This document shows, one piece after another, positions 19,898 through 43,700 of a stretch of DNA of 48,262 nt. Under the pieces are notes generated by a model. The model was not told the DNA's origin, ran no database searches, and saw only the letters and a list, made by a program, of their open reading frames with translations. Positions within the stretch are counted from its first letter, which is position 1; each line of letters opens with the position of its first letter. Source of the DNA: an uncultured bacterium (lineage in GTDB: Bacteria; Acidobacteriota; Thermoanaerobaculia; Multivoradales; JAHZIX01); the NCBI GenBank assembly GCA_965368975.1, contig CBDUPA010000032.1:1-48262 (forward strand), in the 5' to 3' direction. A program made the position numbers and the translations under genes.

Positions 19898-19968
19898 GGC
19901 TCAAGGAGGAGCCTGGCTACACACTACAGATCCCTACGCTTTGCTACAGTGCTAAGACCACTGGAGTT

Positions 19969-20004
19969 GAACCCCTCGTACACACCATGCGAGGGGTTCT
20001 TCTT
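19969..20004 (+). terminator. Intrinsic terminator ending cassette A
   Basis: GAACCCCTCGTA-7nt-TGCGAGGGGTTC followed by TTCTT. Confidence 0.75.
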
Positions 20005-20304
20005 ATGGGCGCATATACGTAGGTGGATCAGTACTGCTGTAGCACTGTAGATACCCTCGATCATTGATGGTACACCCCTCGTTATGCTTTACTGTTCAGG
20101 ATTGTTCTCAGACATAGGGGTGGCCCGAGACTAACGTGTATCCCAATGCTTCGTACAGCCCGTATTCACTGAGGTTTTCGTAGGGGCAGGCCATACTATC
20201 CGGGTGGTATGTAGACCATGGGCTATTGTCTCCGGCGGGGAGGGTCCGGTGTAGGTCGCTGGATGATGCCAAACCTCCACACCAATTCGTGTCCTGTTCA
20301 AGCC

Positions 20305-20590
20305 CTGTCGCCCGGATGGTGAAGCTTGGATGAGACTGATTCTGTCCTTCCAATCCATCCCATCCTCGGGTCGAACGATCTGCTGCAGGGATCCTGAAAA
20401 TTGTCGAGCGCGGCGTTGCTGTGTTCGGCATCCCCTCCACGAATTTTGCAGGATATGCAAATCCGGATGCGGCCTCGCTGGTTCCCTACATAAGCGAATC
20501 CGAATAGTAGGAAGCCCGGTTGCTGTGTTCGGGAGAACGGGGAATCACAGTGGTAGTGTGAAGGGGTGCAACCGGGCTTCCTTGGAAGCG
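20305..20590 (+). ncRNA. Candidate structured non-coding RNA
   Basis: Clustered stems in a ~750-bp gene-free gap: GGATGG/CCATCC with TTGGA/TCCAA, GTCGAGCGCGGC/GCTGTGTTCGGC (4 GU pairs), perfect 15-bp AGGAAGCCCGGTTGC/GCAACCGGGCTTCCT. Confidence 0.4.
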
Positions 20591-20651
20591 TTGAATGGCT
20601 CCTGTCGGAGCGTGTGGTTAGTCTAGTTGGGTCCTGCAAATGGGGAGCGAT

Positions 20652-20864
20652 CTATCCGCCTCTGAAGGGGTAGCTGAAGATGTCAACGAGGATGACCAAG
20701 ATGGCTGCACCGACAAGCTCCCGAGGCAAGCCGATGGCTAGGTCCACCAAGATGACTCCAGCTGAGACGATGATGGCCCTATCCCAGCTGGTCATAGCCT
20801 TCAGCCGACGTAGGGGTGGCGTCAGGACCTCACCGGCTCGGGCTAGGGCTTCATCGAGTCTCAT
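20652..20864 (-). CDS. Small membrane protein (two hydrophobic segments)
   Basis: MRLDEALARAG...AIIVSAGVILVDLAIGLPRELVGAAILVILVDIF; ATGA coupling. Confidence 0.6.
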   Translation of the reverse strand: MRLDEALARAGEVLTPPLRRLKAMTSWDRAIIVSAGVILVDLAIGLPRELVGAAILVILVDIFSYPFRGG

Positions 20865-21013
20865 GACTTGAACCGATTGCAAGGGCACGCCCAGTTGCCG
20901 TCTCCAACCTTGCGCGTGCATACGGGCGTGTGCTTGATCCGATGGTGGCCGCAGCTGTGGCAGATCCGACTCAGAGGAGCCGAGCGCTTACGCCAGGGGA
21001 GCTTGAACCTCAT
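20861..21013 (-). CDS. 50-aa Cys/His zinc-binding micro-protein (not in ORF track)
   Basis: MRFKLPWRKRSAPLSRICHSCGHHRIKHTPVCTRKVGDGNWACPCNRFKS; coupled on both sides. Confidence 0.6.
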   Translation of the reverse strand: MRFKLPWRKRSAPLSRICHSCGHHRIKHTPVCTRKVGDGNWACPCNRFKS

Positions 21014-21480
21014 TCTGGCCACCAGAGTCGCAGTAGGTAATCGTATTCAACTGGGTCACCATCAAGACCGTCTCCGCTTGGATGCGGATCCCACGCCGGT
21101 TTTTCTCCTCCACCGTCACGGTAGAAGAGCACCGAATGAAGGTAGTCTCCCCGAGGTGACTGACCCGAGGCCATGACGTAGCGGTTTAGTGGCGGCTCTG
21201 GCTTCTTGCGAGGTTCTTCGGTGTTCTCCGGGAGATCTGCAAGGTCACCAACTGTGTCGATGGTATAGATTCCGTTGGTACGCAACAACGTCCAGCCGAT
21301 CGCAACGTTGAACCAGTAGCCAGGCTGATCTCCTGCGGTTCCGGTAATAAGTGCGTGCAGTTGATCGCGGTCACGCGGTGAACCGCCCAGCATGATCGTC
21401 AGCGCGGTTGCATAACAGTCACCCTGTTCTTCGGGTGTTGCATCCGGGCCACCGAACTTGGTCTGGTGAAACAGTTTCAT
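21010..21480 (-). CDS. Papain-like (C39-type) fold hypothetical protein
   Basis: Q...GDCYATAL, HSVL and WDPHPS give a Cys-His-Asp order. Confidence 0.55.
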   Translation of the reverse strand: MKLFHQTKFGGPDATPEEQGDCYATALTIMLGGSPRDRDQLHALITGTAGDQPGYWFNVAIGWTLLRTNGIYTIDTVGDLADLPENTEEPRKKPEPPLNRYVMASGQSPRGDYLHSVLFYRDGGGEKPAWDPHPSGDGLDGDPVEYDYLLRLWWPE

Positions 21481-21794
21481 TTGGCTCTCCCTTCGTACTG
21501 GAACTTCAGGTTGCCTGCATCAGCGAAGAACAATCCGGTGTCCGTGTCGCTGTCGAAGTGATACGTCGGCATGTACTGCGTGGAGAAGTTGGTCAACGTC
21601 TTGTCCACGTGAACGTTGTCGAGGGTGTCCTTGAAGTGCCACTTCGTGTAAATCCCTCTGTCTCCGACGGTGAAGCGTTCGGGCTGCGTGACTAGACCAC
21701 CTTCAGCGAGCTTCGGCATGGGCAAGACGGCAGCGACCGGCACTGCAGCAGCCGCCAATCCGAGCTTGCGTAGAAACTGCCGTCTAGTGATCAT
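21477..21794 (-). CDS. Twin-arginine signal protein carrying virion-protein-like motifs
   Basis: MITRRQFLRKLGLAAAAVPVAAVL Tat signal; AGGAG RBS; segments similar to TMP, MCP and tail-fibre motifs of this genome. Confidence 0.8.
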   Translation of the reverse strand: MITRRQFLRKLGLAAAAVPVAAVLPMPKLAEGGLVTQPERFTVGDRGIYTKWHFKDTLDNVHVDKTLTNFSTQYMPTYHFDSDTDTGLFFADAGNLKFQYEGRAK

Positions 21795-22033
21795 CGAGCA
21801 CGTCTCCTGTTCTGGTGTCGCCGCCGGTTGAGTTCGAGCGACCGAGCGCTTGCCAGCACCTGCTTGCGTTGGTGGCGCGGGAAGGTTTGCAGCTTCCTGT
21901 ACTCCGGCTCAGAGATCTTCGTCAACGCAGCTTCAAAGTCAGCGAGTGCATCTGCTGCTTCATCGGTGGCTTGTGCCGCCTTCGAAATGCGCTCCAGTTC
22001 CTCGGGTGTGTAGAGTCGTCCACTGTTGTCCAT
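21791..22033 (-). CDS. Hypothetical helical protein with Arg-rich tail
   Basis: GAGAGG RBS before MDNSGRLYTPEELER... Confidence 0.65.
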   Translation of the reverse strand: MDNSGRLYTPEELERISKAAQATDEAADALADFEAALTKISEPEYRKLQTFPRHQRKQVLASARSLELNRRRHQNRRRAR

Positions 22034-22035
22034 GT

Positions 22036-22215
22036 TCACACCTCTCGATAGAAGACAGTTGCCCGGACCTTGTCGCATTCTCCTGGTTGCGCCAAGAAGT
22101 CCCAACAGGTTGTTTGCCATTCAGGAATCTGCTGGTGATGCGTTCGGCAGAAGTGGATGTCCACCTTGCGCCTGCGCGAGCGCACGCCCGCATGCATGGG
22201 GAAGTAACGTCTCAC
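22036..22215 (-). CDS. 59-aa hypothetical protein (not in ORF track)
   Basis: GTGA coupling; VRRYFPMHAG...FCRTH...C...C...REV; fills the operon gap. Confidence 0.5.
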   Translation of the reverse strand: MRRYFPMHAGVRSRRRKVDIHFCRTHHQQIPEWQTTCWDFLAQPGECDKVRATVFYREV

Positions 22216-22538
22216 CAGGGATCGTCTTCCGAATCGTCTTCGTCCTCATCGTGGACTTCAACCTGTGCCGAGCCGGTGTCGGTGGTTACGGTCATGAGGC
22301 CTCCACTACCGAAGATGATCTGCGGCTGCGGCATCACGATCGACTTGACAGCCCACATGATGCACTCTTCGAGCTTGGTGACCGCAAGCGATCGCTCCCG
22401 AGTGTTCGGGCAGCACTCCTCGATCTTGAAGCCGAGCGCCTTGCCGATAACCCTCAGTGCCTCGATCTGCTCCACCTGCTCGGGCGTGGGTGTGTGGTTG
22501 GTGAGGGATAACTTGATTTGGTCGTGTAGGTGACCCAT
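22212..22538 (-). CDS. Acb2/Tad1-like helical hairpin protein (candidate anti-defence nucleotide sponge)
   Basis: TNHTP...IEALR...CPNTRERSLAVTKLEECIMWAVKSI matches the SRExSLAxTKLEEAxMW family motif; AGGAAGG RBS. Confidence 0.7.
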   Translation of the reverse strand: MGHLHDQIKLSLTNHTPTPEQVEQIEALRVIGKALGFKIEECCPNTRERSLAVTKLEECIMWAVKSIVMPQPQIIFGSGGLMTVTTDTGSAQVEVHDEDEDDSEDDPW

Positions 22539-27217: not shown

Positions 27218-30202
27218 ATGGCCGCCCCAAGCGCCCTGGTAGGTGAGGTTGGTTCCAACACTGGCGGCAACGCCACTTCGCTTTCTGTAACACTACCATC
27301 AGGCACAGGCCGCAAGGCCTTCATTGTCGCTGTTGATGGTGATGTGTCTGGATCGATAAGTTTCGATCTTGATTGGACTGGCAGGGTCTTGGTGTCCGGA
27401 GGAGCGGTCACTGTTGCCCTTGTCACCAGCGATGATGATACGGCCTTTACTGCATCTGGTGTTACTTGGTCAGGCAACCAGCGTGGAGCCGCGATCGGCT
27501 TCATGTTCCCATCCGATGGAGACGCGACGGCTCTAGTGATCCCGACAGGATCTACCGGAGCATCTGCCTCACCCGATCCTCCTGACACTGGCACTCTCAC
27601 CTCCGGTGACTACCGCATCGTTGCCTTGTGTGGATACGACAATGGTCTTCGCACCGTCTCGTCATATCCTGAAGCAGACGACAACCTCAACGAACGTGAC
27701 GCATCCAACCAGGCTGCCGGTGTCGGGATTTGCTCAGTTGGTCAAACATCAATCACTTCATACAATCCTGGGACATTTGGACTTTCGACAGGAGACCAGT
27801 GGGCAGCTTTTACTATTGCGATACCTGCTGACAGCGGGACTCCTGGTAGTGTTTCTCCAGCAGCTGTCGCCACCTCGATCGCAGCACCGACACCCACCCC
27901 GAGCGGAGCAGCAACCGTCAGCCCGGCTGCAGTCGGAAGTGTTGCGGGTCTTCCGACACCGAGTACCGAAGCCGGAGCCACTACTGTTGCACCAGCGACC
28001 GTAGCTAACTTGATCGCAGTCTTGTCCGCATCCATTAGCGCTGGAGCAAAGGTGTCTCCTGCAGCCATTGCGGCCATTGCGGCTTTGCCAGCAGCCACTC
28101 CTCTGACCGTCAGAATACCAGGCAGTTTTGCATTGACAGACTTTGCGGCCATCTACGACGGCATCGATTTGCCAGCCTCGGGAGACATCACTCAGTGGGA
28201 TGATCTCTCGGGCAACGACCGTCACCTGGACGAAGACATATCGGCCGGGACGAACCCACCATCAGTGACTACCTCTTACTTCGGTGGAGCGAAGGCTGCT
28301 GATTTCGATGACACCAACTTGGAGACTCTTGAGTACGATGAGGGGTCAACGTTCTATTCAGGAGATATCGGCTTCATAATCGTAGCCAGATTCCACACAT
28401 TCGTAGGTGCCTCTGATGTCATCTTGTCGGCTGCGACTGGAGGTTCCGGCTCCACCTGGAAACACGTCTTCGGAACCGCCACCTCTGGTGCAGCTTACGT
28501 TTGCATGCATGGTGATGGCTCACCGGGTGCACACAAGACATTCGGGACACCCGCAACGGCAACCGATTTCATCGCTACTGGTTATATTCGTTCCAGCGGG
28601 GACGATGACTGGTGGATAAACAAGACCCAGGAACTTGACGCTACAGATTCTGGAGGCAACGATCTTCGAGGCTGGAGACTCGGCACCAGGGAGACGGATG
28701 ATCGTCCGCTGGATGGCGCCATTGCTTACGTGGCCATCATCGAGATGGATGGGTTCAGCGAGACAGACCTGCTGGCCGCTCGTGATGATGTCGGAGGATG
28801 GTTCGGCATCACTGGCTTCGGAGCCAACTCTGTATCTCCTGCTGCAATCGCTGCCGCGCTTGGAATCCCAACGCCGACGATCAAGGTGGCTCCAACCCTC
28901 ACTCCTGCAGCCATCGCAGCTGCCCTCGCGGCACCCACAGCAACGCCGACGGTTTCACCTACAGTCGAGCCGACTGTAACAGCGTTGAGCTTGGCGACAC
29001 CAACACCGACCATCATCAGCCCAGGCAGCGCGTCTCCGGTTGCAGTCGGAACTGTATTCGGGCTGTTGGCACCGTCTCTCCTTGCGGCCGCGAGCGTAAG
29101 CCCGAGCGCAGCCGCGCTTGTGCTCGGGATGCCACTGCCTGCAATACTCGGAGGCTCGGCTGCTCTGCCAGCCGCAATCGATTTGTCCGGGAGTTTCCCA
29201 ACACCGACCGCTCTGGGTGAAGTTGTTGTAACTCCTGCTGCTGCAGATCTTGTCGCCAACTTGTTAAGTGCATCCTTGTCGGCTGCCTCTTCGGTGTCTC
29301 CCTCGGGCTTGGCGTTGGTCGCTGGTTTGCCGTCACCGTCACCGTCAGGAGGGGTGGCTTCAACTCCTGGTCTGGTCTCGGTGTTGGCTGACCTACTCGG
29401 TGCAGACATATCCGCTGGGGTCAATGCGGCAGCTGCACTGATTCCATTGCTGGGAGATCTACCTACGCCAGTAGCTACCTCACAGCCGATCGCCACACCT
29501 TCTGCAGTCGGGCTGGAGACAAGCCTGCTCACTCCTGGACTAACTGTCGCACCGACCGTTGACCCTGGCGTATTAGCGCTCTCAGTCGCCCTTCCCACAG
29601 CGTTAGTATCGGCTGCACCAGTAGCGAGCCCTTTTTCGATCGGCCTTGTTGCGGACCTACCACAACCCGTCATTTCAAGCTCTGGTTTGGCGCTCCCAGC
29701 CTCTGTCAGCTTGCCGCTTGATTTGCCGAATCCGGCGGCACTCACACCAGGTGGGGTGGCTCCTGCCACAATCGAGACTGCGACAGATCTGCCTTCTCCA
29801 ATCGTGGCGGCAGCAAGCTCGGTCACTCCTGGGTTGATCGTGGTGGCGGTTGGTCTCGACACTCCGCAACCAACTGGAGCCGCCAGTAGTTCACCCGGCA
29901 GCGTTGACCTCACCGTTGGCTCCTCAACTCCGGTAGTGTCGATCGCAGGATCATCGTCACCACTCGACTTGGCACTGGCAGTTTCTGTCCTCGCTCCGGG
30001 TGTCGATGCACCGGGCGCGGTGTCACCTGTTGTGATTGAGGCTTTGCTTGGTATATCGACACCCACCATAATCTCCAACCTCGGGATCCAACCTCGGGTT
30101 CGTCGAGGACGGACCAAGTCCTCGTTCTCAGGCTCGAAGGCCAGCGAGCACGCAGGTAGACACAAAAGCGAACACGAAGGAATGAGAACTTATGCCGATT
30201 GA
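27218..30202 (+). CDS. Large fibre-like virion protein with ~22-aa Pro/Ala/Thr repeats and a LamG/concanavalin-like domain
   Basis: ITQWDDLSGNDRH...LDGAIAYVAI lectin-like core flanked by many VxPxAxxxxxxLPTPx repeats. Confidence 0.7.
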   Translation: MAAPSALVGEVGSNTGGNATSLSVTLPSGTGRKAFIVAVDGDVSGSISFDLDWTGRVLVSGGAVTVALVTSDDDTAFTASGVTWSGNQRGAAIGFMFPSDGDATALVIPTGSTGASASPDPPDTGTLTSGDYRIVALCGYDNGLRTVSSYPEADDNLNERDASNQAAGVGICSVGQTSITSYNPGTFGLSTGDQWAAFTIAIPADSGTPGSVSPAAVATSIAAPTPTPSGAATVSPAAVGSVAGLPTPSTEAGATTVAPATVANLIAVLSASISAGAKVSPAAIAAIAALPAATPLTVRIPGSFALTDFAAIYDGIDLPASGDITQWDDLSGNDRHLDEDISAGTNPPSVTTSYFGGAKAADFDDTNLETLEYDEGSTFYSGDIGFIIVARFHTFVGASDVILSAATGGSGSTWKHVFGTATSGAAYVCMHGDGSPGAHKTFGTPATATDFIATGYIRSSGDDDWWINKTQELDATDSGGNDLRGWRLGTRETDDRPLDGAIAYVAIIEMDGFSETDLLAARDDVGGWFGITGFGANSVSPAAIAAALGIPTPTIKVAPTLTPAAIAAALAAPTATPTVSPTVEPTVTALSLATPTPTIISPGSASPVAVGTVFGLLAPSLLAAASVSPSAAALVLGMPLPAILGGSAALPAAIDLSGSFPTPTALGEVVVTPAAADLVANLLSASLSAASSVSPSGLALVAGLPSPSPSGGVASTPGLVSVLADLLGADISAGVNAAAALIPLLGDLPTPVATSQPIATPSAVGLETSLLTPGLTVAPTVDPGVLALSVALPTALVSAAPVASPFSIGLVADLPQPVISSSGLALPASVSLPLDLPNPAALTPGGVAPATIETATDLPSPIVAAASSVTPGLIVVAVGLDTPQPTGAASSSPGSVDLTVGSSTPVVSIAGSSSPLDLALAVSVLAPGVDAPGAVSPVVIEALLGISTPTIISNLGIQPRVRRGRTKSSFSGSKASEHAGRHKSEHEGMRTYAD

Positions 30203-32202: not shown

Positions 32203-33162
32203 ATGCCAGATTTTGCTAGCACACACGTTGACTCCGTGATGACGAACTTCTCTCGGCAGTACCCACTGCCGATAGGGATGGTGGCAGACATCATCCTGCC
32301 CGCATCGCGGGTGTCGAAGGAGTCCGGAGTCTTCTTCCGCTACTCGAAGGGCGACATGGCCCGAGTCCCCTACACCAAGCGAGCCATTCGGTCTGAAAGC
32401 CGTAGGGTCGATTGGCAAGTGGACACCGATTCGTACAAGTGTGAAGAGTATGCACTCAACGATCTGATCGATGACCGCGAGTACAAGCAGGCTGATCGCC
32501 CGCTCGATCTCCGGCGCGATACTGTCGCCAACCTTCAGCGGTTGATGCGGCTTGATCGTGAGAAGCGCGCTCACACACTTGCAACGAGCGCAGCCATTAC
32601 GAAGAACACCACGCTCACTGGCACCAATCAGTGGCGCGATGCTGGAGCTTCCGGTACGACCGCGACACCTCTGTTCGACATTGAGACTGGCTCCGAAGCC
32701 GTCCGTGCCGATACGGGTGTCCGGCCGAACCTGGCAGTCTTCGGTATGGCTGCGTGGCTGGCCTTCGTGAAGGTGTCCCAGATCCTCGATAGGATTGTCA
32801 CCCCTGGTGGCAACTGGGGTTCGCCTACGATCGGCGTGGATCAGGCACGCACACTTCTCGCTCCGTACGGCATCACTCGTGTGGTAGTCGCTGACGGTAT
32901 CGAGAACACTGCGGGCGTAGGAGTGACCGATTCCTTCTCCGACATTTGGACGGACGAAGTCGGCCTCTACTACGTCAACCCGTCACCGAGCATCCGTTCC
33001 GTCACCTTCGGGTTGACGTTCTGGGCGCAGCAGTGGCAGGTGCGCCGGGCGAGACTCGAACAGCAGCACTCGGACTGGTTCGAGCCAAGCTACGTTTCTG
33101 ATGAGAAGATTGTGGCAGCTGATGTCGCATACCTCATCAAGGACGTCAGCGACGGCACGTAA
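32203..33162 (+). CDS. Major capsid protein
   Basis: 319 aa, HVDxxMTNFS N-terminus, GxRPNxAVFG; canonical position. Confidence 0.85.
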   Translation: MPDFASTHVDSVMTNFSRQYPLPIGMVADIILPASRVSKESGVFFRYSKGDMARVPYTKRAIRSESRRVDWQVDTDSYKCEEYALNDLIDDREYKQADRPLDLRRDTVANLQRLMRLDREKRAHTLATSAAITKNTTLTGTNQWRDAGASGTTATPLFDIETGSEAVRADTGVRPNLAVFGMAAWLAFVKVSQILDRIVTPGGNWGSPTIGVDQARTLLAPYGITRVVVADGIENTAGVGVTDSFSDIWTDEVGLYYVNPSPSIRSVTFGLTFWAQQWQVRRARLEQQHSDWFEPSYVSDEKIVAADVAYLIKDVSDGT

Positions 33163-36893: not shown

Positions 36894-39488
36894 GTGTCAG
36901 CCACCGCACAAGAAATGGCGTTGATCGTCCGAGCCAGAAATATGGCAAAGACCGAACTGCGTTCTGTCGGCAGCGATCTCGATGCACTGGAACGCAAGAC
37001 CGGCAGGATGGGCCAAGCGTTCGGAACTGCAGCGAAGGTCGCCAAGGTCGCAATGGTTGCGATCGGCGTTGCTGTCGTGGCTGGCCTTGCTGCGGGTGTC
37101 GGCGCTTGGGTTGGTTTCGATCAGAAGATGACAGAGTCGTTAGCCATCATGGGTCCAGCCGCGCAGGAGTGGAGGGATGAGATGGAGACGGCTGCGAGAG
37201 AAGTGGCGAAGACCACAACATTCTCCGCAGAAGAGGCAGCTGAGTCATACTTCTTCCTGGCGTCCGCGGGCATGAGCGCAGAGCAGTCGATTGCCGCGCT
37301 GCCTGCTGTCGCAGCTTTCGCACAGGCTGGCATGTTCGATATGGCTCTGGCTACTGACTTGGCAACTGACGCCCAGTCAGCGCTCGGGCTGGTCTCTGAT
37401 GATGCAGCCAAGAACTTGGAGAACATGACCCGGGTGACTGACGTCCTCGTTGGAGCTAACACCCTGGCGAATGCCTCGGTGCAACAGTTCTCAGAAGCGA
37501 TCACCAACAAAGCCGGTGCCGCGATGCGGGCTGTTGGCATGGACATCGAGGAAGGCACCGCGGTGCTTGCGGCTTTCGCCGACCAGGGTCTTAAGGGAGC
37601 CTCCGCCGGTACTGCTCTGCACATCGTTCTGCGAGATCTCCAGACTGCTGCGCTTAAGAACGTGGATGAGTTCTCTGAGCTTGGTGTGTCCGTCTTTGAT
37701 TCCCAGGGTGAAATGCGCAACATGGCGGATGTCGTGGGCGATCTCGAAGGGCTGCTTGATGGGATGTCTGACGCCCAGAGGAAGACCACTCTGGCGCAGC
37801 TTGGGTTCACTGACAAGTCAATGGGCTTCATCAACCAGCTGCTCGGCACCAGCGATGCGATCCGTGAATACGAAGGCGCGCTACGCGAGGCCGGAGGAGT
37901 CACTCAGGAGATCGCCGACAACCAACTCCAGTCACTCAGTGCACAATGGGACCTGTTCAAGTCGAAGATTATTGATGTGTTCATCGGGCTTGGCAAGCAG
38001 CTTTCTCCTGCGCTCAACAAGATCATGGAAGTGCTCGGAGACTTCGCCGAGAACGTTCTACCCCGAGTCGTTGAGAAACTGCAAGAGTGGGGTGCGATCG
38101 TCATGGAGGTTGGTCGAGCGATCTTCGAACACCTGGTCGCTGCCGTACAAGCAGTCATCAGTTGGTGGCAGGACTTGAGTCCGGAGATGCAGGATGCCAT
38201 TAGGTTTGGTGGAATCTTGGCGGGCGTGTTCATTGCCCTCGCTGCCGCGGTGGGCTTGCTCACCACTGCCCTTGGCATCCTGGCTTCTCCGATTCTCTTG
38301 GTCATCGCAGCCATCGTTGCGATCGGCGCAGGACTCAAGCTTGCTTACGATAAGTTTGAGACCTTCCGCAACATCGTAGATGCTGTCATCAAGTGGTTCA
38401 GGGAGGACGCGCTTGAGACCTTCGAGAAGGCCTGGGCTGCAATTGTCTCCGCGGTGGAGACGGCTTGGGCTGCGATCAAGCTGGCCTTCGTAACCGTATC
38501 TGAATTTCTGCAAGATCTTTGGAACAGTTGGGGTGAGGAGATCTTGGCAATGGCTCAGGTGGCGTGGGAGTTGATCGTGACCTCCATCGAAACAGCCTGG
38601 GCTTTCATCAAGGACGTGTTCGAGACTTCCGTAGAAATCATAAAGTTCATCTGGGAGAACTGGGGTGAAACCCTACTATCGCTGGCGCGTACTACTTGGG
38701 AGTTCATCACTGGTGTCATCGAAGGTGCCTGGGATCTAATCAAGGGGATCTTCCAAACTGCTACCGCGATTCTGAAGGGTGATTGGGAAGGCCTCTGGAA
38801 CGGATTGAAAGATGTCGCTTCAGCCGCTTGGGGTTTGGTTACAATTTGGTTCGGAACTGCCATCGCTGTGTTCAAGGCGATCTGGGAGGCAGCCTGGACC
38901 GGAGTCAGCATCTTCTTCAAGGGGATCTGGACCGGGCTAACATTCGCAGCCTCTGCAGCCTGGTCGGTGTTCATTGGATTCTGGAATCGGGTGTGGCAGA
39001 TCTTCAAGTCTGGTTGGGATTTGGTCTGGGGCACTCTGTCGGATGCAGTCAGTACAGCCTTCGGTGGTGTAGTCGGCGTAGTCGGTGGGATTCTGCAGAG
39101 CGTAGTCAACATTTTCAACACAGCAGTCAACGCAATCAAGGACACGATCAACAAGCTGATCAGCGCTTACAATGCAATACCGATCGCTCCCGACATCCCA
39201 CTCATCGGCTCGGGTGGTGGCAAGAAGAACATCACTATTCCCCACATGGCTCGGGGTGGCAAGACGATTGTCGGAGGACTATCGCTGGTCGGTGAGAACG
39301 GACCGGAGCTTCTCAACATGAACCGCGGTGCGACGGTAACTCCGTTGCCCACGAACAGCAACAGTGGTTCGCTCGGCAGTCCGACTGAGGTTCACCTCCA
39401 CATTCACGGAGTAGATCTCTCTGACTCTCGGGCAGCGATCGAGAAGATCCGCGAGGGCATCCGCCAACTTGATCTGGAGGCTTCGTAA
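36894..39488 (+). CDS. Tape measure protein
   Basis: TP901-type core (TTFSAEEAAE...LASAG), Trp-spaced 11/22-aa repeats, C-terminal MARGG...VGENGPE. Confidence 0.95.
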   Translation: MSATAQEMALIVRARNMAKTELRSVGSDLDALERKTGRMGQAFGTAAKVAKVAMVAIGVAVVAGLAAGVGAWVGFDQKMTESLAIMGPAAQEWRDEMETAAREVAKTTTFSAEEAAESYFFLASAGMSAEQSIAALPAVAAFAQAGMFDMALATDLATDAQSALGLVSDDAAKNLENMTRVTDVLVGANTLANASVQQFSEAITNKAGAAMRAVGMDIEEGTAVLAAFADQGLKGASAGTALHIVLRDLQTAALKNVDEFSELGVSVFDSQGEMRNMADVVGDLEGLLDGMSDAQRKTTLAQLGFTDKSMGFINQLLGTSDAIREYEGALREAGGVTQEIADNQLQSLSAQWDLFKSKIIDVFIGLGKQLSPALNKIMEVLGDFAENVLPRVVEKLQEWGAIVMEVGRAIFEHLVAAVQAVISWWQDLSPEMQDAIRFGGILAGVFIALAAAVGLLTTALGILASPILLVIAAIVAIGAGLKLAYDKFETFRNIVDAVIKWFREDALETFEKAWAAIVSAVETAWAAIKLAFVTVSEFLQDLWNSWGEEILAMAQVAWELIVTSIETAWAFIKDVFETSVEIIKFIWENWGETLLSLARTTWEFITGVIEGAWDLIKGIFQTATAILKGDWEGLWNGLKDVASAAWGLVTIWFGTAIAVFKAIWEAAWTGVSIFFKGIWTGLTFAASAAWSVFIGFWNRVWQIFKSGWDLVWGTLSDAVSTAFGGVVGVVGGILQSVVNIFNTAVNAIKDTINKLISAYNAIPIAPDIPLIGSGGGKKNITIPHMARGGKTIVGGLSLVGENGPELLNMNRGATVTPLPTNSNSGSLGSPTEVHLHIHGVDLSDSRAAIEKIREGIRQLDLEAS

Positions 39489-40717: not shown

Positions 40718-43700
40718 CGTACACCAAGAAGCTGATGGCCCAAGGCCAGTGGTCACTGCGGCTCAAGGAGGAAGCTCCGGAGCAGCTAATCGACAAGATC
40801 GAGTACGCGGGACACATCGTCATCACCAACGAGCGTATCGACATCGAAGCCATGTCCGACTCCGAAATCTTGACAAAGGCCAAGTACGTTGGAGTCGTAA
40901 CCAAGAAGCCGACATCCGAGGTGCAACGCTACGGTGGCTTCGGTCTGGTCTGGTGGCTTGGCTCGCAAGGACGTGGCAAGATCTTCCGTGGGGCTTCTGC
41001 GATTTCCTGGACCAACGAGGCCTTCGAAGATGCGATCGATGACATCCTGGCTGCACCCACACCGATCACCAAGAACGACATCGAGACGACAGCCGGAACC
41101 TACACGCAGGACTTCGATCTGAAGAACCAACGGGAGGTTCTCGAAGTCCTCACCACTGCCTTCGGTGCAGAGTATCGAGTCAACAATGACTTTACCTTGG
41201 ATGCTGGAGCCTCGGGCTACCTCTACAACTCAACGCCCACTGCAGTCATGGCTCGCAAGTTTGCTGGTCGGGATCCCGAGCATGATGGATTGTTGGTGCG
41301 CAACCTCAGTGTCGATGGAGATATCGAAGACTTCACCACCACCGCGATTGTCGCAGCTGAAGGCACTGGCGAAACTTTGATCACCGAAGAAGTGTCGCTG
41401 GCCGACAAACTCTTCCTTGATCCGCAAGGCAACGACATCGATCGAAGTTTCGTAGTCAACGAGCCTTCGACATCGAGCGCCAATGCATCCGACCGGGCGC
41501 AGGCCTACCTCGATGCCTACGGAACCATACGCAAGGCTGTGAAGGTTGACCTCGATGACTTTGACATCGAAGGGCAGTTCGTACTGGGTGACTTGATCTA
41601 CATTTGGGATCCGAAGACTCAGCTGACCGACACCGACAACGAGTGGCACTACCGAGGACAAATGCTGAACCCGATCGCCATTCGGGTGGTCGGAGAGACC
41701 GAGCCGATACGTGCAGGCAATGGTGTTTACTACCGGGACACTGCTGCTACTCCCAACTACACAGATCTCTCAGACCACTTCGAGCCGGAGACGGGCACCT
41801 CCAAGATCGAGGTGAGCGCATCCAGCCGCAACTTGGTGAACGGAGAATCCGCTACGCTGGATGCCAGGATCTCGATCGACCCTGACGGCAACGACACTAT
41901 AGGTCCGGACACGCCCGCGCATGCGAGCACACCTTGGCTCTCGACTACCTACCTCGATGTCATGGGCATCAGGAAGTCGCGAATTGTTCCGGTGTGGGAT
42001 ACCCCTCTGAACACGGACGCCACCGCGGTGACAGATGGCTCGCACTACACCGTTCGTTATCGTCAGAACGGTCAGACCGAGTATCAGTACCTGTCTGTCG
42101 ACTGGGGAGTGAACACTTGCTCGCTCAACGAGCTTGCTCCGGGAGTCGTGTATGAAATCTCGGTGGCGGCTTCGGACGTCAACGGCAACACCTCAACCTA
42201 CGCTGCCGACGAATCCGTGACAGCAGCACAAGCCACTGGAGTTCCTTCACAACCCTCGGTGCCGACGGTGGCAGGCAATGCCTTGAACATCCAAGTCGTG
42301 CATGACCTCACCAAGAATGCTGGCGGCAATCTTGAAGACGACATCGATCACCTGGTTGTCTACGGGCACACCTCCTCGGGCTTCACACCATCGAGCGCCA
42401 ACCGGCTGGGCGAGATCGGAGCGACGGCTTCACACATAAACCTCGGAGTGCCTGTCGTCGGCACCTTCCCGCTCGAAGACACTGCGACTCGATACGTGGT
42501 GGTTACCGCGGTTGATCGGGAGGGTAACGAATCCGCCAAGTCACCCGAGGCCACCGTCACCGCGGACCTCATCGACACTCAGCACATCACCAATGCTGCG
42601 ATCACGAACGCACTCATTGACAACCTCGCAGTCACTGACGCCAAGATAGTTTCCCTGACTGCGGACAAGCTGACCGCTGGCGAGATCGATGCTGCTGTAA
42701 TCGATGTGGTCAACCTCAAAGCCGAAGAGATTCAGACGGGCACGTTGGGAGTCATCACACTCACCCTGTCGAACTCTGCCTCCTCCAAGATTCAATCGTT
42801 TGACGGCACCACCCTCATCATCCGAGGTGACGGGTACTTCAAGGCTGTCAGTGGCGACATCGGAAACCTGGATATCATCGACACCCTGACCATCGAAAGT
42901 GGTGGAGCGATCTACTCCTCCTCAGCGACCAGCCGGGTTGAGCTTGTCTACGCTTCGTTAGCAGGAGAGTCTGATGCGATACCTTCGGTGCTCTGGCGTA
43001 GCGGAGGGACGGTTGGTGGCAAGATTCAAGTTGAAGCTAGTACGCCAGACAGATTCCACATCGAGTCAGACAACGGTGCAGACATGTGGGTGTACTCGGA
43101 TGATGCCTTTTACCTGACTGCAAGCGGAGTGATCTACCTTGGCGGCACCGGCACCGCGTATTACAACTACATCGAAATCAATCAGGCCAACGATGATGTC
43201 GGCTTGTTCGTGGGTGCATCTTCAGCAGTTGAAGTTCTCAGAGCGCAGCATAACGCTGGCAGCCAGCAAGTACTAATTACGTATGGAAGCGCAGGCAACC
43301 CTGGCCTTGGGTTTATTGGCAATGCGACTACTGGCATCTACAGGGCAGACACCAATCGTCTGGCAATTGCGACTGGAGGTGTCGGTAGGTACGCGGTGGA
43401 CACTCAAGGCAGGTTCCGCACCGAGGCCTTTACGACAGGTTCTGCTTTGCTGGCTGCTGATGGTGCAGGCTCCTTGTCCGCTCCACCCCACAGCTTTGCA
43501 GGAGACACTGACACTGGCGCTTACCGGTATGGCGTTGACGAATACGGTATTTCAGCCGGAGGTGCTGAGATGGCGCGGTTCAAGAACACCACTATTGATG
43601 AAGCCAGAATCTTGCCTGCATATAGCAACACGTCATCCGGAGACGCTACAGTAGGAGTGACCTCAACCGGGTTGCTACGCCGACAGACTTCTGCCCGCAA

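Follow-up and report, generated by a model that had tools for sequence, protein, structure and literature searches.

A contig of 48,262 nucleotides from a metagenome bin assigned to an uncultured bacterium of the Acidobacteriota carries, in a phage genome, a gene for a small protein that joins an export signal to segments resembling two different virion proteins. The whole stretch, here called the window, is the entire contig C32 (CBDUPA010000032.1) of assembly GCA_965368975.1, which comprises 59 contigs and 7.1 Mb. The gene in question is an open reading frame (ORF) of 105 amino acids (aa) with an ATG start on the minus strand (21477..21794), hereafter the target. It combines a twin-arginine translocation (Tat) signal with a short motif known from the N-terminus of major capsid proteins (MCPs) and one core of a tail-fibre repeat. 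The likenesses to virion proteins seem to exist at the protein level only and would not stem from recent DNA copies. We tentatively interpret the product as a Tat-exported accessory factor of the cell envelope that is encoded by a singleton phage gene (probability of about 0.4). It is an unusual and testable mosaic, yet a singleton in an uncultured phage.

The target is a real gene, as follows from its translation signals, its coupling to the adjacent genes and its codon usage. A Shine-Dalgarno-like AGGAG (21804..21808, minus strand) was read in the sequence 9 nucleotides before the ATG, and no earlier start codon exists in the same frame. ATGA overlaps were found on both sides, the stop codon of the target overlapping with the ATG of the downstream gene and its own ATG with the stop codon of the upstream gene. 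The codon-usage log-odds of the target was 0.324, compared to a mean of 0.31 (standard deviation 0.115) in 78 chunks of 16 confident phage genes. Its frame was the best of six by this measure, the other five being negative.

Residues 1-30 (21705..21794, minus strand) form the predicted Tat signal, in which TRRQFLRK is followed by a hydrophobic core rich in Ala and the c-region contains a Lys. An earlier note on this DNA, generated by a model from the sequence, had proposed such a signal, and the curated NCBIfam model TIGR01409 (TAT_signal_seq) bears this out by matching residues 2-30 with 24.4 bits at a cut-off of 16.7 (E 2.5e-5). The target shares with the signals of this family the T-R-R-x-F-L-[KR] motif, a core that is rich in Ala and moderately hydrophobic, and a basic residue ahead of the probable cleavage site region. 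Unlike in usual Tat substrates, the signal is attached to a cofactor-less phage protein of about 75 residues and not to a redox enzyme. The protein is not a lipoprotein, since its translation contains no cysteine. Among 47,793 six-frame ORFs of at least 80 aa in the assembly, a strict pattern ([ST]RRxFL[KRQ] followed by a hydrophobic core) was found only in the phage protein; a looser Tat pattern gave 52 matches in the assembly, mainly ordinary membrane N-termini. Hence, the bin seems poor in canonical Tat signals despite encoding TatC. The presence of TatC in the assembly that holds the contig says little, as the host link of the phage is uncertain. No other small ORF of the Tat type was detected in 417,092 bases, consisting of the window and related loci.

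The second component copies a motif of the HVDxxLTNxSxQY type that is conserved at the N-terminus of the lambda-gpE-type MCPs in this phage lineage; a profile places the copy at residues 58-74 (21573..21623, minus strand). In our view, this capsid likeness is probably real. In the phage's own MCP of 319 aa, alignment and profile locate the motif at residues 4-20 (32212..32262, plus strand). In total, 62 MCP relatives were found, about 50 of which are 66-81% identical; they lie on contigs of up to 53 kb, and some carry PF03864. A metagenome scan with the MCP alignment gave 64 loci, taken with flanks of 300 bases. Their N-terminal stretch is near-invariant, with H in 59, D in 60, L in 57, T or S in 60, S in 52 and Y in 57 of the 61 aligned sequences. 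A profile of 32 columns was built from the N-termini of 60 homologues without the target and was compared with a background of 66,796 six-frame ORFs of the assembly (10.27 M residues). The MCP of the phage reached 67.8 bits and the target ranked second with 24.7 bits (E 5e-5), followed by a match with 10.6 bits (E 1.2), which corresponds to a separation of 14 bits between the target and the best remaining background match. The same profile found nothing in 149 repeat-bearing tail-fibre proteins (149,899 residues, 1294 repeat units; best E 0.09). Therefore, the likeness is not a feature of the linker of the tail-fibre repeat described below.

Pairwise comparisons point in the same direction. 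We shuffled the mature part of the target 1000 times and compared it with the six-frame ORFs of at least 100 aa (34,833 aa), which gave a median best score of 39; the score of 53 for the MCP segment was equalled in 0.5% of these shuffles. BLASTP of the single pair resulted in an E of 3e-4. Identities were also counted in windows over 32 phage proteins (11,950 aa): the real sequence gave a single window of 9/13 or better, and 30 shuffles gave none. Thus, the MCP-like segment proposed in the earlier note withstood both the profile and the shuffled controls. The target is closer to distant MCPs than to the MCP of its own phage: residues 58-74 are 12/17 identical to the MCP N-terminus in two related loci (L030 and L092), where MCPs are about 36% identical overall, compared to 9/13 identities with the phage's own protein. 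Nucleotide identity is low, with 30/45 to the own MCP gene and at most 30/51 to 81 related MCP starts, and no nucleotide-level duplication was found within the window. The view that the segment is not a recent duplication is thereby supported. Since the residues that are invariant in MCPs are kept at a nucleotide identity of 59% or less, the segment appears to be under constraint and does not resemble a decaying recent fragment. A residual doubt about the capsid likeness comes from the very large number of windows that were scanned in the first stage.

The likeness is confined to the motif. The 17 residues of the target equal the N-terminal motif of the lambda gpE-type family (PF03864 on homologues; solved relative PDB 3bjq), whereas the rest of the capsid fold is lacking and the motif is internal and not N-terminal. 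Neither an HK97-type fold over about 300 aa nor any match beyond residues 58-74 places the target among the gpE-type MCPs. A complex prediction with MCP residues 24-319 and target residues 26-105 scored 0.00, and no verdict was drawn from it. An MCP search in 401 genomes of the phylum of the bin gave seven matches including the source assembly, all of them distant.

The motif was also observed in a different protein of a related locus. In L004 (1682-3001, plus strand), a homologue of the Mu-like protease/scaffold protein bears the MCP N-terminal motif at its own N-terminus. This protein is 48% identical to the protease of the phage in the window, and the motif lies on a 61-residue extension that is absent from the latter. 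This occurrence outside a capsid gene suggests a portable element that sits at the N-termini of proteins in this lineage of phages.

The third component, at residues 75-102 (21489..21572, minus strand; fit from about residue 72), corresponds to one core copy of a widespread tail-fibre repeat of the PxYxFxxDxDTG...L.F...G type, as identified with a repeat profile. An exhaustive phmmer search with the target in 1.84 billion representative sequences gave 153 proteins at E <= 1e-3. All of the 150 listed matches except the query are 181-4133 aa long and contain 3-26 matched stretches each. More than 1000 of the 1142 matched stretches span target residues 75-92, and at most eight span residues 1-30. 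In 147 of these proteins, 1294 repeat cores were counted with a modal spacing of 53 residues. Nine of the ten repeat proteins scanned match phrog_28766 (‘tail fiber protein’). Among the proteins found, P0019 ends in a Peptidase_S74 domain, and P0023 has a match to the chaperone portion of the L-shaped fibre of T5 (4uw8). The target itself reaches no PHROG at E <= 0.1.

A core profile of 35 columns finds the 1102-aa tail protein of the phage at both sites that the earlier note had named, with the first core at 43285..43383 (plus strand, independent E value (i-E) 2.1e-8) and the second at 43468..43569 (plus strand, i-E 7.9e-9). In the background of assembly ORFs, the tail protein scored 48.6 bits, the target 41.3 bits and the next ORF 9.5 bits. 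The score of the target is biased, because the target was the query that gathered the members of the profile, which makes the profile partly circular for it; the matches to the tail protein are independent. Neither the one-core nor the two-core profile detected a second repeat copy in the target, the latter aligning residues 67-102 with an envelope of residues 37-104. Accordingly, the target contains one core only and not the tandem array of a long fibre protein. It resembles tail-fibre proteins (phrog_28766 and relatives, some of which end in S74/T5-pb1-type chaperone domains) in that residues 72-102, approximately, fit the repeat core. It differs from them in its single core and its export signal, whereas the fibres are 181-4133 aa long with 3-26 repeats. 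The MCP motif and the repeat abut in the target without a linker. Tat-type N-termini are absent from the 149 other repeat proteins listed, and 11 of these carry Sec-like ones, which suggests that the tail-fibre repeat also serves outside the cytoplasm in cellular proteins.

The earlier note had described the target as stitched together from motifs of three virion proteins, the third being the tape measure protein (TMP). Its four ungapped alignments and the translation of the ORF proved letter-exact, and PHROGs confirm the genes it named as those for the major head protein, the tape measure protein and the tail/tail-fibre protein. The pairs have 7/22 identities with the TMP (BLOSUM62 score 29), 9/13 with the MCP (score 52) and twice 8/27 with the tail protein (scores 33 and 32). 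Scores of 29-33 are below chance level, because the median best score of the shuffles is 39. Likewise, windows with at least 8/27 identities occurred 72 times with the real sequence and on average 66 times in the 30 shuffles, and windows with at least 7/22 identities 129 and on average 114 times. The likeness to the tail fibre thus holds as a family-level kinship based on the repeat profile, and not as counts of 8/27, which are routine in shuffled sequences.

For the TMP, the claim did not survive. The alignment of residues 26-47 with 39237-39302 scores below the shuffle median, and a profile of four TMP sequences ranks the target 79th of the 66,796 ORFs (E 51). This profile is thin, as the search with the region found the TMP itself only. 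The C-terminus of the TMP contains a motif of the GG...VGE.GPE type that is common to three related loci. In a search of PDB sequences, target residues 16-51 gave a chance match to the ribosomal protein uL2 with an E of 0.41, which is better than the likeness to the TMP. The pattern P..A.GG..VG..G, which occurs three times in 10.27 M aa, was dropped as a test since it had been derived from the alignment itself. On present evidence, and as far as the sequences tell, the tape-measure likeness is due to chance. Most of the TMP-like residues 26-47 (21654-21719) fall into residues 31-57 (21624..21704, minus strand), a segment without established kinship. In summary, the mosaic stands with regard to the capsid motif and the fibre repeat and loses its tape-measure piece; of the pairwise evidence, only the MCP segment passes the shuffled controls, which reject the TMP segment and the tail-fibre counts. 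The comparison illustrates that, unless profiles back them up, 7-8 identities over 22-27 residues are meaningless.

Further searches were directed at relatives of the complete target. Blastn and tblastn searches in 50,697 phage records gave no relative apart from the target itself or multi-repeat fibre proteins, and the same holds for six genomes of the family of the bin. In a word-indexed search of 5.8 billion clusters, 13 candidates yielded one match, the target itself. A search for related phages in IMG/VR based on the portal protein gave no confirmed match. Full-length homologues with one conserved globular domain, which the earlier note had named as a counter-indication, were not encountered, nor was any other full-length homologue. 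Pfam, PHROGs and NCBIfam contain no family for the target beyond the Tat signal, and none of their anti-defence families matches. The ESM Atlas gave a best score of 0.87, which we regard as a lead only. Three DNA runs of sediment or marine metagenomes, all from one study, contain the region in identical form, and a fourth run covers only 240 bases outside the target gene; no RNA run is listed with the region, and no sequence variants of the target were seen across the three runs. As there is neither a full-length homologue nor a sequence variant, we can only infer its function.

The surrounding genome is that of a phage. An exact direct repeat of 55 bases at both ends of the contig (1-55 and 48208-48262) indicates that the phage genome, with a length of about 48.2 kb, is complete and closed into a circle. 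The rightward replication block encodes an exonuclease, a Sak4-like annealing protein, a primase/helicase, a DNA polymerase of 1042 aa, a thymidylate synthase and the large terminase. The rightward virion block encodes the portal, the Mu-like protease/scaffold protein, a weak cement-like protein, the MCP, the TMP, the 1102-aa tail protein and an endolysin. Between these blocks sits a short leftward cassette (approximately 20.65-22.54 kb), of which the target is the third gene. The contig has a GC content of 57.5%, compared to 65.4% for the assembly, and no linking sequence, CRISPR-spacer-like match or other match connects it with the rest of the assembly. The link of the phage to a host is therefore uncertain. 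A GC content of 55-60% was also observed in seven other contigs of the assembly (C41, C46, C48-C51 and C54). The phage, and perhaps also these seven contigs, may have been mis-binned.

The first gene of the cassette, two genes upstream of the target, contains an Acb2/Tad1 hairpin domain (22212..22538, minus strand; phrog_1454) and matches PF24729 with 58.8 bits at a cut-off of 27 (E 5.9e-16). This family has been described as phage sponges for CBASS and Thoeris signals, and the encoded protein is likely a cyclic-nucleotide sponge, judging by its family match. The upstream neighbour of the target is an ORF of 109 aa, or possibly 80 aa if started from an internal ATG (21791..22120, minus strand), for which no family was found. 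Translationally coupled to the target on the downstream side is a gene for a protein of 156 aa (21010..21480, minus strand; phrog_5845). Its Atlas lead (0.96) is to viral clusters of which 15-32% carry DUF261 or Peptidase_C39, and its AlphaFold2 (AF2) model is poor, with a predicted local distance difference test (pLDDT) value of 38.0. It may be a papain-like peptidase. In its sequence, a predicted helix begins with a Cys, and a His follows later. A double-glycine leader in the target, considered on account of EGG at residues 31-33 and the possibly C39-like neighbour, was rejected by eye, as the conserved positions of such leaders do not occur. The leftward block ends with two further ORFs, noted by eye on the minus strand, one of 89 aa with two hydrophobic segments (20652-20921) that matches no Pfam or PHROG family, and one of 53 aa that is rich in Cys and His according to its translation (20861-21022).

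Directly downstream of the cassette, about 750 bases (19900-20650) contain no convincing ORF. The minus strand of 20000-20650 has a folding z of −4.0, which was equalled by none of 20 shuffles, compared to −0.6 for the plus strand. A perfect inverted repeat of 15 nucleotides lies within the stretch (20509-20523 and 20568-20582). No Rfam match was obtained for it at gathering score or at E <= 1. It is possible that the stretch represents a structured RNA. Furthermore, an ORF of 994 aa between the genes for the portal and the protease (27218-30202, plus strand) belongs to no PHROG or Pfam family.

Our preferred interpretation, the exported envelope factor, would involve the following steps. The gene would have been born by module shuffling and would be expressed from the leftward cassette headed by the Acb2/Tad1-type sponge gene. 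The product would fold in the cytoplasm into a module of about 75 residues and would be taken to the envelope by the Tat system, where it could be freed into the periplasm or be retained by an uncleaved signal. There, it may act in an accessory role as a minimal fibre-like module, most likely by interfering with related phages or excluding them at the envelope, or by masking what fibre-type repeats bind. That the leftward block combines the Acb2/Tad1-type gene with a small ORF bearing two hydrophobic segments is in line with this. Exported phage proteins for superinfection exclusion include T5 Llp, TP-J34 Ltp and HK97 gp15, which use Sec or lipoprotein routes or membrane helices. The target is similar to them as a small accessory phage protein with a signal or anchor and a supposed action at the envelope; it differs in having a Tat signal where those have a Sec signal, a lipoprotein signal or a membrane helix. 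Among the titles listed in literature searches for Tat-signal phage exclusion proteins, none was relevant.

Several points weigh against an envelope factor. A homologue with the same architecture was found in none of the 1.84 billion representatives, the 5.8 billion clusters, the phage GenBank records and IMG/VR. No homologue or sequence variant points to selection on the gene. No known family of exclusion proteins in Pfam, PHROGs or NCBIfam matches the target, the shorter Pfam model for Tat signals (PF10518) stays under its cut-off (7.8 compared to 22.7 bits), and the single-sequence AF2 model of the target is poor (pLDDT 45.8). The main weakness is that a motif from the N-terminal arm of a capsid protein would serve no evident purpose in the periplasm, a compartment that capsids never enter; the periplasm itself is assumed, given the uncertain host link.

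Among the alternatives, it is conceivable, if doubtful, that the target is a young chimeric ORF. Illegitimate recombination would have fused a start that encodes a Tat signal with the opening codons of a capsid gene and part of a tail-fibre gene; the product might be made, but its virion motifs would have no selected role. Phage genomes are mosaic, and the singleton status of the target, the lack of a homologue of the same architecture, the absence of any other small Tat-type ORF from the window and the related loci and the direct junction of motif and repeat would all fit such an origin. What speaks for constraint instead is that the capsid-invariant residues have been kept at a nucleotide identity to capsid genes of 59% or less; the tight operon coupling and the normal codon usage also argue against a chance fusion.

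It is unlikely that the capsid likeness is a coincidence and that the protein consists of a Tat signal and about one unit of the tail-fibre repeat. The number of windows scanned is so large that chance alone might yield a few events with an E of about 5e-5 per 10 M aa. Pairwise alignments with certain repeat proteins (P0097, P0095 and P0003) extend from about residue 40 to residue 102, across the MCP-like stretch, and the envelope of the two-core profile covers it as well. On the other hand, the capsid profile is independent of the target and still places it 14 bits above the background, this profile finds nothing in the 1294 repeat units, and the target agrees better with distant MCPs than with the MCP of its own phage.

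The earlier note had proposed a decoy for defence sensors, beside a dominant-negative or exclusion factor against competing phages. We regard a cytoplasmic mimic of defence triggers as quite improbable. The protein would engage host sensors of capsid or tail-fibre proteins and either block them or drag them out of the cell by the Tat route. It would thereby be the trigger-side partner of the neighbouring Acb2/Tad1-type signal sponge, expelling sensors through the Tat pore or neutralising them. The Tat system carries folded proteins together with bound partners, and the target shares its cassette with the sponge gene. Its motifs come from two classes of virion proteins, capsid and tail-fibre proteins, which according to an editorial (PMC13728456) often trigger CBASS, Thoeris and other systems. 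This makes the decoy idea worth keeping, as context and not as evidence. All of its support is of this contextual kind. No sensor, partner or homologue is known, the motifs are short, at 17 and about 30 aa, and might fold differently from the parent proteins, there is no precedent among literature titles, and the host link is uncertain.

Finally, it is very unlikely that the target is directed at capsids, with the N-terminal arm motif as a portable tag that docks where capsid N-termini dock and brings the protein into procapsids or disturbs the assembly of co-infecting relatives: the protease/scaffold homologue of L004 does bear the motif on its 61-residue N-terminal extension, but in the target the motif is internal, and the Tat signal points away from the cytoplasm, the site of capsid assembly. 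Competition for a site on the capsid protein is a known strategy, as described for SaPI1 CpmB (PMC5644958), a small protein that occupies a site normally used by another assembly protein. CpmB is cytoplasmic, satellite-encoded and helical, and it mimics the scaffold and not the capsid N-terminal arm; the likeness to the target is conceptual, and no sequence relation is claimed.

Even if the target were only a chimeric ORF, it would still represent a clean case of the shuffling of gene fragments. If the motifs are functional, it would be a compact natural case of short linear mimicry of virion proteins by an accessory gene of a phage, and the mimic would stand beside a gene of a known anti-defence kind and be routed to an export pathway that is unusual for a phage protein. 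It would then also offer a small construct with which to ask whether peptides from capsid N-terminal arms or fibre repeats are recognised by host or phage factors. The same construct could serve to ask whether phages bring folded modules into the envelope by way of Tat, and whether new phage genes can arise through mosaics of this sort.

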